IMG/VR virus record: IMGVR_UViG_2563366942_000011
Reading direction: 5' to 3' (one strand)
Source of the DNA: a virus
Taxonomy: Duplodnaviria > Heunggongvirae > Uroviricota > Caudoviricetes
DNA: 18,053 nt
Both the position numbers and the translations under genes were made by a program. Positions within the stretch are counted from its first letter, which is position 1, and each line of letters begins with the position of its first letter. The notes below the pieces were generated by a model. That model did not search any database. It was not told the DNA's origin and saw only the letters and a program-made list of their open reading frames with translations. This document shows positions 4,385-13,529 of this stretch, in pieces.

Positions 4385-4581
4385 CTGTCAGCAATGTTTT
4401 TACTCCTCGTTATTGCCGGAATACCTAAGCCATTGTCTGAATGCAGCCATGCCACCGGATTCTCTTCCAGCGATGCCAGAGCAATTTCATAAGCCCGGCG
4501 CTCAACATTGTCTCGCACATCCAAACTGCTGATACGCTCTTTGATTTCTTTAATCAGTTCTTTGTCGGTAAAAGTGCTCAT
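4327..4581 (-). CDS. ea22-family N-terminal module (85 aa), possibly the 5' part of a frameshifted gene
   Basis: ATG at 4581 lies 1 nt after the ea22-like stop; MSTFTDKELIKEIKERISSLDVRDNVERRAYEIALASLEENP...; overlaps the next frame by 58 nt. Confidence 0.5.
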   Translation of the reverse strand: MSTFTDKELIKEIKERISSLDVRDNVERRAYEIALASLEENPVAWLHSDNGLGIPAITRSKNIADSWLSKGWYVQPLYMPSQCQ

Positions 4582-8282: not shown

Positions 8283-8415
8283 TTTTTGGGACTCCTGGCT
8301 GATTAAGTATGTCGATAAGGCGTTTCCATCCGTCACGTAATTTACGGGTGATTCGTTCAAGTAAAGATTCGGAAGGGCAGCCAGCAACAGGCCACCCTGC
8401 AATGGCATATTGCAT
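8251..8415 (-). CDS. cIII: CIII (FtsH/HflB inhibitor that stabilises CII), 54 aa
   Basis: Hand translation from ATG 8415: [54 protein letters not shown]; too short for the ORF track; overlaps kil by 32 nt as in lambda. Confidence 0.9.
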   Translation of the reverse strand: MQYAIAGWPVAGCPSESLLERITRKLRDGWKRLIDILNQPGVPKNGSNNYGYPD

Positions 8416-8487
8416 GGTGTGCTCCTTATTTATACATAACGAAAAACGCCTCGAGTGAAGCGTAATTGGTATGCGGTAACGCCGCGC

Positions 8488-9479: not shown

Positions 9480-10034
9480 ATGCATTTTTTCCTGCAAGGA
9501 ATGACACTTAAACAGTTGATTCATATGCTAATCATCCTGATCATATTGATTATTGTTATGCCGGTAAGCGTAAAAGAATGGATAAACCTGCATAATCCAG
9601 AAATCCTTCCTCATTACTGGATGTATTACATCCTGTTGTTTTGCGTTAGCTATGTGCTTAACGGCGTTGTTAATTCCGCTTATCACGCTGTGACTGAAAG
9701 AATTGAGGTATTCGCTGCTCAGAAGCGCAAATCTAAAGAAGAAAAATATGTGCAAGATTTGTTTGATTCGTTAACTCTTGGAGAAAGAGCGTATTTGGCA
9801 TTCGCTGTAGCCGCTAATAACCAGCTACAAACGGAAAAGGGCGCTCATGAATCAATTTCATTGCTCAAAAAAGGACTCCTCGTTCGAAGGCCTCCTGCTG
9901 TTGGATATCCTGATACCGACCGTTTCGTTATCCCTGAAAGCTATAGACATGAGTGCTACATTAGGTTTGCCGGGAAGGCAGACAGCCTTATGGATGAACT
10001 TATCGCTCAGGATAAGCATGGCAAAAACAAGTAA
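9480..10034 (+). CDS. sieB: Superinfection exclusion protein B (SieB-like, membrane)
   Basis: 184-aa plus-strand ORF with a hydrophobic N-terminus (LIHMLIILIILIIVMPV...), convergent with N as sieB is in lambda and Rac. Confidence 0.8.
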   Translation: MHFFLQGMTLKQLIHMLIILIILIIVMPVSVKEWINLHNPEILPHYWMYYILLFCVSYVLNGVVNSAYHAVTERIEVFAAQKRKSKEEKYVQDLFDSLTLGERAYLAFAVAANNQLQTEKGAHESISLLKKGLLVRRPPAVGYPDTDRFVIPESYRHECYIRFAGKADSLMDELIAQDKHGKNK

Positions 10035-10050
10035 TTAGCAAATGAATTTA

Positions 10051-10323
10051 TCATCTCGCCGTCAGTTGTTTTGATTTCCGGTAGCCTGCCGCGTAAAGAG
10101 CTACGTTCGGAAGACAAGTTGAACCTTCATATTTTCTGGTCAACGTTGTCAGAGTTATCACTTCTGCTCTCATTGCTGGTTTGAGCTTGCATTGCAAGAC
10201 CACTCGTGAAGGGGGTGGCCTGTGTAGCTTGTCGGAGCTGATCGCCTCCTGACTTTGCAGATTTGCGCGACGAGCTCTACGGCGAGAAGCTGCGGTGCCT
10301 TTAAATTCTGTTTTTCTGGACAT
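10051..10323 (-). CDS. N: N-family transcription antiterminator (non-lambda; C-terminus resembles P22 gp24 as recalled)
   Basis: ATG at 10323 behind a GGAGGA RBS; 90 aa beginning MSRKTEFKGTAASRRRARRANLQ (arginine-rich motif) and ending ...VALYAAGYRKSKQLTAR. The 114-aa track ORF is a 5' over-extension. Confidence 0.75.
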   Translation of the reverse strand: MSRKTEFKGTAASRRRARRANLQSQEAISSDKLHRPPPSRVVLQCKLKPAMRAEVITLTTLTRKYEGSTCLPNVALYAAGYRKSKQLTAR

Positions 10324-10421
10324 GGATTCCTCCCGAATAAACTTTGGCGATGCAATCTCGAAGCTCCTCCTGAGACGGTTGCTTCGGCATTGCATCCCAC
10401 AGCTTATGTGGTTGGGTGATC

Positions 10422-10466
10422 TGGCTTTTCAGCCACGTAGTCGAGAGTCGACGTTGTTTAAAGAGC
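10422..10466 (-). promoter_or_regulatory. nutL: nutL: boxA (GCTCTTTAAACAACG) + spacer hairpin + boxB (TGGCTGAAAAGCCA)
   Basis: Minus strand reads GGCTCTTTAAACAACGTCGACTCTCGACTACGTGGCTGAAAAGCCAG about 100 nt upstream of N; same architecture as the nutR candidate. Confidence 0.6.
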
Positions 10467-10499
10467 CTGCCAGTCTGTTCCATTTGGCTTCCAGCGTCC

Positions 10500-10560
10500 T
10501 GCTGACGGTTAAATAGTACGATATGTACTTTACAAGATCAATACAATTTGTTGTAAGTTG
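10500..10560 (-). promoter_or_regulatory. pL/oL region: candidate -35 TTGATC, -10 TACTAT and palindromic operators
   Basis: AGTAC-N5-GTACT at 10515-10529 overlapping the putative spacer and -10; ACAA-N4-TTGT at about 10543-10554. Confidence 0.4.
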
Positions 10561-10724
10561 GCGTGGTTTTTTATAACGCTTTGTATTTAATAGTGTTGTT
10601 TTTTAGCGTGGATGTATTGCCTCGGCGATGTAAGGAGAGATCAGAATTGCGTGGTTTAGTGGGTTGCATCTATTTATTTTTCAATAAATATAATTGGTTA
10701 TGTGTTTTTAGGTGGGCGAACGTG

Positions 10725-10753
10725 AGGCAAAGAAAACCCGGCGCTGAGGCCGG
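10725..10753 (-). terminator. Intrinsic terminator ending the cI / two-gene cassette transcript (t-imm analogue)
   Basis: Minus strand reads CCCGGCCTCAGCGCCGGG followed by TTTTCTTTG, just downstream of the 250-aa gene stop. Confidence 0.6.
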
Positions 10754-10759
10754 GTTGTA

Positions 10760-11512
10760 TTATGCTGCAAGTCTCTTAACCCAAGTCTCTCTTTTGGAGA
10801 ATGGTAGAACTTGGCTTGATTCATGGAAGAGTAAGGAGAGTTGTTGCATTTGATCACCAATTGCTTCGCTGTCTATAACAACAAATCTGTTGTTATACTC
10901 CTCACTTGAAGCTTTAAGATCAATTAGTTTCCCAAGCAATGAGTAAGCACTATTCCAGCTTCCTCCGTGTTTCACGCTTGATGTAAAAACGTATTTAGGT
11001 ATGTCGGTTTTTATTGTTACAGGGACGGTAATTTGATGTCCACTCAAGCCATATACGTTTTCACGAAGAGAAAGTGCGTCTCTAAGCTCTGTGTGATATA
11101 GATAATCAATAACCATACTTTCAAACTTTTCAGCTTGAACTGGCTGATACCAGTCTAACGACAAAGTTGATGCGAGTATACCAGCTCTAATTATGTTCGA
11201 TGTAATCGCACCGACATCCTTTTCTGTTGCCCAAGCAATGATTTCTCCTCGAGCATTGAGTTCTGCGCCTTCTTTAAGCAGTAATTGTCGTATCTCATCA
11301 AGTCGTTTTTTGGTAAGCGAGATCCCTCTTGCCTCCATATTCATTAAGGCATCGCATCTGTCACTAACTAAATACCTACCATTGACTTCACGGATAAAGG
11401 CACCGACATGCTCTCCATCATCACAGTAAGTGAATGGACTGATAATTCTCAAGGTCTTGCCTATTGGATGGCATTCGAAACCTAGTTGTGAGATCACTGT
11501 TGAGCACATCAT
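10760..11512 (-). CDS. Uncharacterised 250-aa protein, distal gene of a two-gene cassette at the rexAB-equivalent locus
   Basis: ATG ATG start overlaps the upstream stop (ATGA); no long hydrophobic segments; AT-rich relative to flanks; no known family recognised. Confidence 0.8.
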   Translation of the reverse strand: MMCSTVISQLGFECHPIGKTLRIISPFTYCDDGEHVGAFIREVNGRYLVSDRCDALMNMEARGISLTKKRLDEIRQLLLKEGAELNARGEIIAWATEKDVGAITSNIIRAGILASTLSLDWYQPVQAEKFESMVIDYLYHTELRDALSLRENVYGLSGHQITVPVTIKTDIPKYVFTSSVKHGGSWNSAYSLLGKLIDLKASSEEYNNRFVVIDSEAIGDQMQQLSLLFHESSQVLPFSKRETWVKRLAA

Positions 11513-12066
11513 ATTCCAAACCCCATTTGCCCCGACTCATCTTCAAGCGGTAAAGGTATTCTCCCAGAGTAAGTTATGTTCAGATGTTTACAGAAGTAAT
11601 TCCAATACCCTACCAGGTCATCTGGGTTTATGTCATCTTCGATTGGAAACGCTATTCTATCACTATAGTATCCAGCTTCTTCATAGTATACATGGTAGTG
11701 AGCACCGTAAATGATATCTTGGTACTTCGGATGATCGACCTTGTAACTATTCGTGTGTTTGTCAAAGTGATAGGTATCTACCGCGAAAACCCTCTTGTTA
11801 TGATAGAAAGCAATAATATTTATTTTAGGGTAAGAAATCGGGTCATCAGGTTCTGAATCCTGATCTGGTTTCCATTTCAGTTCAAACTTTAGCCCTTGTA
11901 TAGGTATACAATCCTCATCCAAGGGGATGATATGGGCTTGTAGCCACATATCAGAGCGACTTGGTTTCTGTTTCCATTTAACGCCAGAAAAGTTAACTAT
12001 TTTTTTACAATAAAGTACTTTATCAACTTCTACTTGGCTTGGCTGATAATCATCTATTTTTGCCAA
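11509..12066 (-). CDS. Uncharacterised 185-aa protein, proximal gene of a two-gene cassette at the rexAB-equivalent locus
   Basis: Frame opens at TTG 12066 straight after an in-frame stop, 40 nt downstream of the cI stop; aromatic/His-rich stretch DHPKYQDIIYGAHYHVYYEEAGYY; AT-rich. Confidence 0.75.
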   Translation of the reverse strand: MAKIDDYQPSQVEVDKVLYCKKIVNFSGVKWKQKPSRSDMWLQAHIIPLDEDCIPIQGLKFELKWKPDQDSEPDDPISYPKINIIAFYHNKRVFAVDTYHFDKHTNSYKVDHPKYQDIIYGAHYHVYYEEAGYYSDRIAFPIEDDINPDDLVGYWNYFCKHLNITYSGRIPLPLEDESGQMGFGI

Positions 12067-12105
12067 TGTTTACCGCCCTGTAAATTGTAGATAAAAGTGG
12101 TTTCA

Positions 12106-12765
12106 TCACCCAAACGTCTCTTCAGGCCATTGGCTGGCGATAACTTTCCCCACAACGGAACAACTCTCATTGCATGGGATCATTGGGTATTGTGGGTTTA
12201 GTGGCTGTAGAAACACCTGACCGCTATCCCTGATCAGTTTCTTGAAGGTAAATTCATCACCACCAAGTCTGGCTATGCAGAAATCGCCGGGCTCAACAGC
12301 TTGCTCAGGGTCAACCAGAATTAACATCCCGTCAGGAAAGCTGGGTTTGGAACCTGTTGGTGCGGTCATTGAGTTACCTTCAACCTCAAGCCAGAATGCA
12401 GAGTCACTGGCTTTTTTGGTTGTGCTTACCAATCTCTCCGCATCGCCTTTGGTAAAGGTTCTGAGTTCTGGAGAGAACATCCCAGCCTGAACATGAGAAA
12501 AAACAGGGTACTCATATTGTTTTTTAACTGGGGCCGATGAGTATTCGCCAACAGGTGAAAATGTCCCGTCGTGGTTGAATGATATGTTATCAATACCAAG
12601 GTATTTAAACACCACACCAATATCACTAAGAGATGGATGACGAGATCCGCGCAACCAGTGTCCAATCCCACCCTGCGTCATACCTAGCTCTTCGGCTAAC
12701 TTCTCTTGAGTTATGCCGAGCTCTTTCATTCTGGATCTAGCCAGTTCATACCATTTCATTTTCAT
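12106..12765 (-). CDS. cI: CI repressor, hybrid: non-lambda HTH (XRE-type) N-terminal domain with lambda-type C-terminal domain
   Basis: C-terminal ~135 aa ([29 protein letters not shown]...[10 protein letters not shown]) match lambda CI CTD as recalled; N-terminal [40 protein letters not shown] is a different HTH. Start chosen at the ATG with an AAGGA RBS; the track's 5' extension is probably not translated. Confidence 0.88.
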
Positions 12766-12875
12766 GTCCTTATTATTACGCTCTGTACTGGAACCATCCA
12801 TGCACAATGTGTATTTTTACTTGTATTCGCAAAGTACATATTGTATTTTTTATTCGTGTTTACTATGGAGGGCAT
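12766..12875. promoter_or_regulatory. oR region with divergent pRM/pR candidates and operator-like repeats
   Basis: 110-bp cI-cro intergenic region; AGTACATATTGTATT at 12833-12847 is a degenerate copy of the oL palindrome; additional TGTA/TACA half-sites. Confidence 0.45.
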
Positions 12876-13091
12876 ATGAGCAACCTACGAAAATATCGAG
12901 AGTCACTGAATATCTCTCAAACAACACTTGCTAAGGCAGTTGGATGCACACAGGGAGCTATCGGACATTGGGAATCTGGTCGTCGCTTCCCAGACCTTAA
13001 AACATGCCGTGCTCTTGTTGCGTGCCTAAACAAGTTAGGCGCAAAAGTCAGTCTTGATGACGTGTTCCCGCCGGAACACAAAGCCGCTTAA
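12876..13091 (+). CDS. cro: Cro-like repressor (XRE-type HTH)
   Basis: ATG at 12876 behind a GGAGGG RBS; 71 aa MSNLRKYRESLNISQTTLAKAVGCTQGAIGHWESGRR...; its recognition-helix region resembles that of cI (TQGGIGHW vs TQGAIGHW). Confidence 0.82.
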   Translation: MSNLRKYRESLNISQTTLAKAVGCTQGAIGHWESGRRFPDLKTCRALVACLNKLGAKVSLDDVFPPEHKAA

Positions 13092-13101
13092 TAAGCGGAT
13101 C

Positions 13102-13147
13102 CGCTCTTTGTAACAACGGACATTCGTCCTACGTCGCTGAAAAGCGA
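13102..13147 (+). promoter_or_regulatory. nutR: nutR: boxA (CGCTCTTTGTAACAACG) + spacer hairpin (GGACATTCGTCC) + boxB (TCGCTGAAAAGCGA)
   Basis: Immediately downstream of the cro stop; same architecture as nutL, including the TACGT element before boxB and the GAAAA loop. Confidence 0.6.
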
Positions 13148-13232
13148 GTTCCAAGATATCTGACCAACTAAGGCCATATGCGTTTCCACGCATACCTTTC
13201 AACTAACTATTCACTATTGGAAATCTTAAGAA

Positions 13233-13529
13233 ATGGAAAGAACAAGTTACAGCAAACTATCACAGCGTGACGTTGATCGCGCAGAAACAGATTTACTTAT
13301 CAATCTGTCAGCTATTACCCAGCGCGGTCTGGCAAAGATGATTGGCTGTCATGAATCGAAGATAAGCAGAACGGACTGGAGATTTATTGCTTCGGTCTTG
13401 TGTGCTTTCGGAATGGCATCAGACATCAGTCCGATTAGCAGGGCTTTTAAGTATGCGCTTGATGGACTCACCAATAAAAAACGCCCGGCGGCAACCGAGC
13501 GTTCTGAACAAATCCAGATGGAATTCTGA
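13233..13529 (+). CDS. cII: CII transcriptional activator, hybrid (non-lambda N-terminal part, lambda-identical C-terminus)
   Basis: 98-aa ORF ending ...LTNKKRPAATERSEQIQMEF, identical to the lambda CII tail as recalled; N-terminal two-thirds differ. Confidence 0.85.
   Translation: MERTSYSKLSQRDVDRAETDLLINLSAITQRGLAKMIGCHESKISRTDWRFIASVLCAFGMASDISPISRAFKYALDGLTNKKRPAATERSEQIQMEF

Follow-up and report, generated by a model that had tools for sequence, protein, structure and literature searches.

The window, here meaning the whole 18,053-nucleotide stretch of viral DNA that was analysed (IMG/VR record IMGVR_UViG_2563366942_000011), is from a lambdoid phage. Positions 10000-13300 are 99.9% identical to Escherichia phages ev017, ev207 and PhiR57_1, and the N and cI-cro-cII segments are ~96% identical to the Stx2 phages 1717, 2851, Nil2 and YYZ-2008. 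The genes of the early region are sieB (9480-10034, plus strand), N (10051-10323, minus strand), two accessory genes on the minus strand (10760-11512, with DUF1828, and 11509-12066, with a weak match to DUF6978), cI (12106-12807, minus strand), cro (12876-13091, plus strand) and cII (13233-13529, plus strand), after which O and P follow in the local gene list. Both accessory genes lie between cI and pL, the slot held by rexA and rexB (rexAB) in lambda. The pair (10760-12066, minus strand) is probably cargo expressed in the lysogen and ending before pL. A strong hairpin resembling an intrinsic terminator (10735-10756, minus strand; 8 bp, 6 of them G-C, then UUUCUUU) is located 3' of these genes. 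A full-length match to the cIII thermoregulator family (Rfam RF01804, Lambda_thermo) was found at 8370-8428 on the minus strand (88.5 bits, E = 8.5e-21). It was the sole match in the Rfam scan of the window, which returned no family for nut sites of the layout described below.

The N gene encodes a protein of 90 aa that begins MSRKTEFKGTAASRRRARRANLQ and matches PF25694 (N_peptide, E = 6e-32). A Shine-Dalgarno sequence, GGGAGGA (10334-10328, minus strand), is placed 5 nt before the ATG at 10323. The longest N open reading frame opens 24 codons further upstream (10324-10395, minus strand; MQCRSNRL..., 114 aa) and is annotated in this form in some database records. We favour the 90-aa start because of its homology to the start of H-19B N and the distance of 5 nt between the Shine-Dalgarno sequence and the ATG.

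The putative pL (10513-10541, minus strand) consists of a -35 element TTGATC, a 17-nt spacer and a -10 element TACTAT, with the operator-like sequence AAAGTACATATCGTA; the putative pR (12821-12849, plus strand) consists of TTGTAT, a 17-nt spacer and TATTTT, with the operator-like sequence AAAGTACATATTGTA. An operator-like 15-mer, AAAGTACATATYGTA, is common to the two regions. The leader downstream of pL, CAGCAGGACGC from position 10504, equals the start of the lambda pL leader. At 8/12 to consensus, pL falls under the promoter-scan threshold, and at that threshold the scan listed neither pL nor pR. The candidate pL was therefore placed by leader homology to lambda together with the operator-like element, and the candidate pR by its location between cI and cro together with the same element.

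Anatomy of the two nut sites

The phage loads its antitermination protein N at two N-utilisation (nut) sites. nutL was located at 10467-10422 on the minus strand, ~40 nt downstream of the pL-like promoter and ~100 nt upstream of N. nutR was located at 13102-13147 on the plus strand, between the cro stop and cII, starting 11 nt past the cro stop codon. The RNA order is the same at both: boxA GCUCUUU, single-stranded ACAAC, a hairpin, single-stranded UACG and boxB. At nutL (all minus strand), boxA GGCUCUUUA (10459-10467) matches the boxA of lambda and P22 (CGCUCUUA and CGCUCUUUA) and the rrnB leader sequence GCUCUUUAACAA. It is followed by the 5' single-stranded flank AACAAC (10453-10458; family consensus ACAAY), the spacer hairpin GUCGA-CUC-UCGAC (10440-10452; 5 bp, 3-nt loop), the 3' single-stranded flank UACG (10436-10439) and boxB UGGCU-GAAA-AGCCA (10422-10435; 5-bp stem, GNRA tetraloop). 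The corresponding parts of nutR (all plus strand) are boxA CGCUCUUUG (13102-13110), UAACAAC (13111-13117), the spacer hairpin GGAC-AUUC-GUCC (13118-13129; 4 bp, 4-nt loop), UACG (13130-13133) and boxB UCGCU-GAAA-AGCGA (13134-13147; 5-bp stem, GAAA tetraloop). The 9-mer boxA and the boxB stem are separated by 23 nt at each site, of which the hairpin takes 12-13. On the transcribed strand the spacer hairpins precede UACGU and lack a U-run, a form that is not that of an intrinsic terminator. The two sites thus have what is found at lambdoid nut sites: positions in the pL leader and between cro and cII in the early sense, a boxA, a covarying GNRA boxB and an adjacent N gene with an arginine-rich motif.

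A chance likeness of nutL and nutR was ruled out by pattern counts. GCTCTTT-N1-2-AACAACG has 2 matches in the 18 kb (10452-10466, minus strand, and 13103-13118, plus strand) where 200 shuffles gave an expectation of 0.00; TACGTNGCTGAAAAGCNA, allowing 2 mismatches at most, likewise has 2 in the window (10422-10439, minus strand, and 13130-13147, plus strand) for 0.01 expected by shuffle. A third copy of the boxA-like 9-mer CGCTCTTTG is present at 4535-4543 on the plus strand. It was rejected as a boxA: neither hairpin nor boxB lies downstream, and 0.77 matches are expected by chance. Near nutR, a 6-bp hairpin, CCGCUUAAUAAGCGG (13084-13098, plus strand), covers the cro stop codon, its end lying 3 nt before boxA. 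Its reverse complement was flagged as terminator-like; only some related nutR regions have it, the rest reading AGCAGCAUAAGUAACCC.

The original prediction, made from the letters of the window, had described a layout common to nutL and nutR with an extra hairpin between boxA and boxB. This is borne out by the twofold occurrence of each pattern, the positions, the PF25694 assignment of the N gene and the covariation reported below. On re-extraction with strand and coordinates, both strings were recovered from the strands given and their similarity persisted. The predicted intervals carry one flanking base at one or both ends: 10422-10466 for nutL ends at the A closing boxB, and 13102-13147 for nutR begins at the C of CGCUCUUU and ends at the closing A. 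Folding of both sites placed the spacer hairpin in the predicted minimum-free-energy folds. The boundaries of three elements had to be redrawn. The conserved AACAACG is present at both sites, but its G is the invariant first base of the hairpin and pairs with the C before UACG. In the conserved TACGT, the last T forms a pair with the A that follows boxB, a pair that covaries among relatives (U-A, A-U, C-G, G-C), so that the single-stranded motif is UACG and the boxB stem has 5 bp. The boxB loop had been read as GAAAA; by folding and by comparison with relatives it is a GAAA tetraloop of the GNRA type closed by a U-A pair, which leaves four loop nucleotides at both sites rather than the five of the lambda type.

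Conservation and covariation of the spacer hairpin

Pattern scans, four against IMG/VR and one against GTDB genomes, yielded ~100 distinct sites with this hairpin architecture from Enterobacterales, in prophages of Escherichia, Citrobacter, Klebsiella, Kluyvera, Enterobacter, Pantoea, Mixta, Erwinia, Rouxiella and Izhakiella. Two of the scans left half of the site free. Without the UACG requirement, [U/C]ACG was found directly 5' of boxB in all matches with a paired boxB and lambdoid context, and was absent from chance matches; one related site reads CACG. With boxA and AACAACG as the only requirement, all real sites had the hairpin, then UACG, then a boxB with a GNRA loop, two boxB versions carrying GCAA. 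ACAAY stands directly 5' of the hairpin in nearly all related sites, even those without a recognisable boxA. Four anchor-matching chance hits from unrelated phyla, taken as a negative control, had stems of just 1-3 bp. One 3.5-kb contig (L455) in a MAG labelled Segatella copri has a site of each type, nutL and nutR, both identical to those of E. coli phages, so that a prophage contig of enterobacterial origin seems to have been mis-binned into this Bacteroidota MAG.

Covariation was counted without regard to pairing, by setting the 4 bases after ACAAY against the 4 before UACG in 26 distinct rows. All cells of the spacer helix (100%) were paired, with both-side changes in 3/4 pairs. Slid partner columns were 26-47% paired, and 0/500 column shuffles reached the observed score. 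Pair 1, the closing G-C, is invariant (26/26 rows). Pair 2 is G-C in 16 rows, A-U in 8 and U-A in 2; pair 3 is A-U (11), U-A (8), C-G (5), G-C (1) or G-U (1); pair 4 is C-G (13), U-A (6), G-C (5), A-U (1) or G-U (1). The spacer helix alone is an unbiased test, boxB pairing having served as an inclusion filter, so that its 100% is by construction. For boxB the covariation evidence is the variety of pair types: the outer two pairs, which covary between nutL and nutR and over relatives, occur as U-A, A-U, C-G and G-C and as C-G, G-C and A-U, respectively.

At least 12 stems occupy the spacer position (GUCGA, GGAC, GGACA, GGCC, GGCA, GGGC, GGUGA, GGUGC, GAUUCR, GAUUGC, GAAGAU and GAAGGU). At the position of the nutL hairpin, relatives have the loops CUC, AUC, ACUC, ACAC, ACAU and GCAC, and other stems occur there as well. 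Over the family the stem is 4-6 bp and the loop 3-7 nt, the loop sequence and both lengths being unconstrained. G-U pairs within the spacer stem occur solely in the transcript sense (GGACG/UGUCC, GGGC/GUCC and GGUGAA/UUUACC), which points to selection on the RNA and not on the DNA. The nutL sites with the GAUUCR stem (L001, ~2790-2750, minus strand; also, for example, L018, L039 and L209) have no boxA and carry a conserved GGUGAAnAUACAAC in its place.

In single-sequence folding the hairpin was part of the minimum-free-energy fold of 39/40 distinct sites, with a median pair probability of 0.98; when the hairpin interiors were shuffled, 2% reached P > 0.5. RNAalifold returned no pairs when run on 35 natural sites in a plain MAFFT alignment. 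This null is an alignment artefact, because MAFFT misaligned the hairpins, whose length varies, and the 1-nt indel in the loop. MAFFT was accordingly replaced by anchor-defined strings of fixed length (with dummy AAAA/GAAA loops) and by single-sequence folding.

Relation to known N-nut systems

The layout is of the H-19B type, as in the NUT sites of the Shiga-toxin phages H-19B and 933W, and was already known; in the window phage boxA is canonical, boxB has a GNRA tetraloop, and N is short with an arginine-rich motif like that of lambda. The window sites have the spacer dyad or hairpin of that type, pairing conserved over sequence, homology and length compensation. In the deposited H-19B sequence (AF034975), nutR reads CGCUAUUUUCACAAU-GGACAUUCGUCC-UACG-UCGCUGACAAAGCGA and nutL reads ...GGUGAAUAUACAAC-GAUUCGAAUAUGAAUC-UACG-GCGCUGACAAAGCGC. 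The part order, (boxA)-ACAAY-hairpin-UACG-boxB, is the same as in the window. The nutR hairpin and UACGU are identical (GGACAUUCGUCCUACGU), as are 133/146 positions from nutR through the cII start, and the N proteins of the window and of H-19B share 41% identity (E = 2e-22), with the C-terminus LPNVALYAAGYRKSKQLTAR in common. The differences are in the other parts. H-19B boxB has a GACAA pentaloop as in P22 (CGCUGACAAAGCG), whereas the window has the GAAA tetraloop, one loop C fewer. The N motif of H-19B is RRRERLKAKA, and window N is short (90 aa) with the lambda-like RRRARRANLQ. H-19B nutR has boxA CGCUAUUUU and its nutL none, whereas a canonical boxA is present at both window sites, and the nutL stem is GAUUCG in H-19B and GUCGA in the window.

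H-19B nutR/tR1 has served as template in two studies (PMC3526286 and PMC4499122). In the first of these, H-19B nutR formed two hairpins in the nascent RNA, the spacer and boxB were protected by N with NusA/NusG, and the spacer was the initial Rho contact (PMC3526286). The primary paper on the H-19B spacer element is Neely and Friedman 2000 (Mol Microbiol 38:1074), cited in PMC3526286 and PMC3202840. By analogy, the two-hairpin form and the protection of the spacer would be expected to hold in the window phage too.

Lambda resembles the window in the genomic positions of its nut sites, boxA GCUCUU, a boxB with a GNRA-type loop closed by U-A, and the N motif RRRxRRAxxQxQ. It differs in its spacer of 8-9 nt without a hairpin and in the 5-nt boxB loop, GAAAA or GAAGA, with one base extruded; window N has no equivalent of Trp18, and its C-terminal part is of another N family. 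Immediately 5' of its boxA, lambda nutL also has GGUGA, to be compared with GGUGAAnAUACAAC of the boxA-less nutL sites. P22 has an N-like gene 24 protein of the same family with the same C-terminus, boxA CGCUCUUUA and an effective spacer of 11-12 nt, but its spacers lack the hairpin, ACAAY and UACG, and its boxB loops are GACAA or of the GACAAC type. The anticipated excess of the boxA-boxB spacing over that of lambda is therefore real (23 nt against 8-9, and 11-12 in P22). The comparison with P22 that had been proposed brought out a similar effective length, though not a second stem-loop. In the E. coli rrn operons, the antitermination leader of rrnB (MG1655, L332 317-328) with boxA GCUCUUUAACAA resembles nutL GCUCUUUAAACAAC (10453-10466, minus strand) and GCUCUUUUAACAAC of its relatives, and the conserved ACAA(Y) may correspond to an rrn-like 3' extension of boxA. 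The rrn order differs, being boxB-boxA-boxC with the hairpin before boxA; there is no N, and no UACG-boxB downstream.

The arginine-rich motif of window N aligns with lambda RRRERRAEKQ. Motifs and loops were compared using window N (10255-10323, minus strand), L001 (2241-2624) and loci L002-L328. Across loci, GAAA and GCAA boxB loops go with the N motifs SRRRARRANLQ, GRRRERRAALQ and SRRRAHRAELQ (lambda-like, without Trp), and GACAA loops with SRRRERLKAKA. One C in the loop is the difference between H-19B boxB and window boxB. One phage (locus L017) has GCAA at nutL and GAAA at nutR. The ACAAY-hairpin-UACG module is the same in the GACAA group and the GAAA/GCAA group. Because both groups keep it, and the P22 relative of N goes without a hairpin, the sequences indicate that the hairpin follows the H-19B/933W N-nut lineage and not the RNA-binding specificity of N, which co-varies with the boxB loop. 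The suggestion that the second stem-loop reflects a different N thus applies to the lineage it marks, but not to how N reads boxB.

Proposed role of the hairpin

The window sites are the nut sites of a lambdoid phage with an H-19B/933W-lineage N-nut module, in which the spacer hairpin probably acts as a structural 'reducer'. The basis for this is the sequence and position of the sites, their conservation and covariation, G-U pairs confined to one strand, and an effective spacing that stays constant. In the family, the total distance between the last base of GCUCUUU and the boxB stem is 23-30 nt, the hairpin takes 12-19 and the remainder is 9-12 (mode 11); counted alike, P22 has 12 nt and lambda 8-9 nt, with a hairpin in neither. 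These lengths fit a hairpin that absorbs variable extra length and leaves the effective spacer constant. In the proposed sequence of events, nutL would be transcribed from pL and nutR from pR, the early promoters. boxA GCUCUUU would serve as the NusB-NusE site, and N would bind boxB through its arginine-rich N-terminus (SRRRARRANLQ). The 4-5-bp hairpin with its invariant closing G-C pair would fold 12-13 of the 23 spacer nt away, leaving ~10-11 nt of single-stranded spacer, the P22/lambda length. boxA-bound NusB/NusE, spacer-bound NusA and boxB-bound N would then assemble on RNA polymerase and render it termination-resistant. In lambda nut RNA, NusA binds solely the spacer (PMC2724277).

The element in H-19B was reportedly named 'reducer' by Neely and Friedman and proposed to draw the flanking sites together, and the spacer hairpin of the window is what we take to be of this type. 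Changing one arm of the H-19B dyad symmetry is said to inactivate NUT and compensating changes to restore it; deletion of the dyad symmetry reportedly had little effect. H-19B N is also reported to require NusA but not NusB, S10 or boxA. The need for host factors may differ in the window phage, because its sites keep a canonical boxA and H-19B nutL does not.

Shortening of the spacer, rather than specific recognition, is the most likely role of the hairpin. A passive shortener does not obviously account for the invariant closing G-C, the near-invariant ACAAY and UACG, and the retention of the hairpin over many genera instead of its deletion. These features would be explained if the hairpin and its flanks formed a specific composite recognition element, whose ACAAY / G-C / UACG junction docks NusA, the central part of N or, at nutR, Rho's first contact, and whose geometry is needed. 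The free variation of the inner stem and loop next to a G-C pair kept in 26/26 rows is in keeping with such an element, as are the retention of ACAAY in boxA-less sites, the persistence of the motif over Escherichia, Klebsiella, Citrobacter, Enterobacter, Pantoea, Mixta, Erwinia and Rouxiella, and the footprints of N with NusA/NusG and of Rho on the identical H-19B nutR spacer (PMC3526286). Yet neither the loop, in sequence or in length (3-7 nt), nor the stem in its length (4-6 bp) is constrained, and flank conservation may simply reflect a NusA-binding spacer. The small effect that deletion of the H-19B dyad is reported to have had also speaks against it, and we regard a recognition element as rather unlikely. 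A broader proposal, that the junction is a lineage-specific docking element and that a natural GNRA boxB, GAAA or GCAA with no base extruded, is read by a lambda-like motif without Trp, would amount to a third mode of N-boxB-NusA assembly, with the single-base indel from GACAA to GAAA switching specificity between co-circulating N types of Stx phages. It is speculative and, on present evidence, unlikely.

Two further readings have much less to recommend them. Both window sites have a competing predicted fold in which boxA GCUCUUU is base-paired to GAAAAGC, the loop and 3' arm of boxB, around the spacer hairpin, and the nut RNA could on this basis be a structural switch that hides both protein-binding elements before N or NusB/NusE arrives. 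The minimum-free-energy prediction gives this fold for both flanked window sites (nutL -14.2, nutR -16.3 kcal/mol) and for the window-type nutL family, with a boxB outer pair probability of 0.02 in the latter, and in nutL (G/G) as in nutR (C/C) of the window the base 5' of boxA equals base 2 of the boxB stem. But boxB is kept in the minimum-free-energy fold of 30/40 distinct related sites, the full folds have weak Z-scores (-1.3 and -1.7), and local boxB folding should win during transcription. Relatives also break the covariation, with CGCUCUUU, AGCUCUUU and UGCUCUUU beside a GGCU boxB and CGCUCUU beside an AGCU boxB, and boxA is missing from many nutR sites and from every nutL site of the H-19B type; a switch is very improbable. 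Pairing of the boxA 5' end with the boxB 3' arm (GGCU/GGCU at nutL, CGCU/CGCU at nutR) was likewise rejected as a family feature, being a matching base without covariation in a family with many boxA-less sites. That the palindromes act as DNA or on the other strand, as the site of a dimeric protein or as an antisense terminator, is hardly credible. The terminator scan did flag plus-strand 10440-10452 (GTCGAGAGTCGAC then GTTGTTTAAA), but it returned 4 sites for 2.7 expected, which is no enrichment; the tail has no T-run, and the nutR equivalent is without one. The stems are wholly different from one site or phage to the next, a variation that the DNA target of a protein would not tolerate, and the G-U pairs become C-A mismatches on the other strand.

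In lambdoid prophages, N-nut modules govern the expression of delayed-early genes and, by an indirect route, of late genes, including toxin expression in Stx phages with the same N type (1717, 2851, Nil2, YYZ-2008 and Stx2a_WGPS). Nut sites of this type are unmarked in the H-19B, Nil2 and lambda/P22 database regions examined, and their exact anatomy helps annotation. These results leave the current understanding of N antitermination unchanged and add comparative data: natural covariation in support of the H-19B 'reducer' idea, and a clean pairing of the arginine-rich motif of N with the boxB loop.
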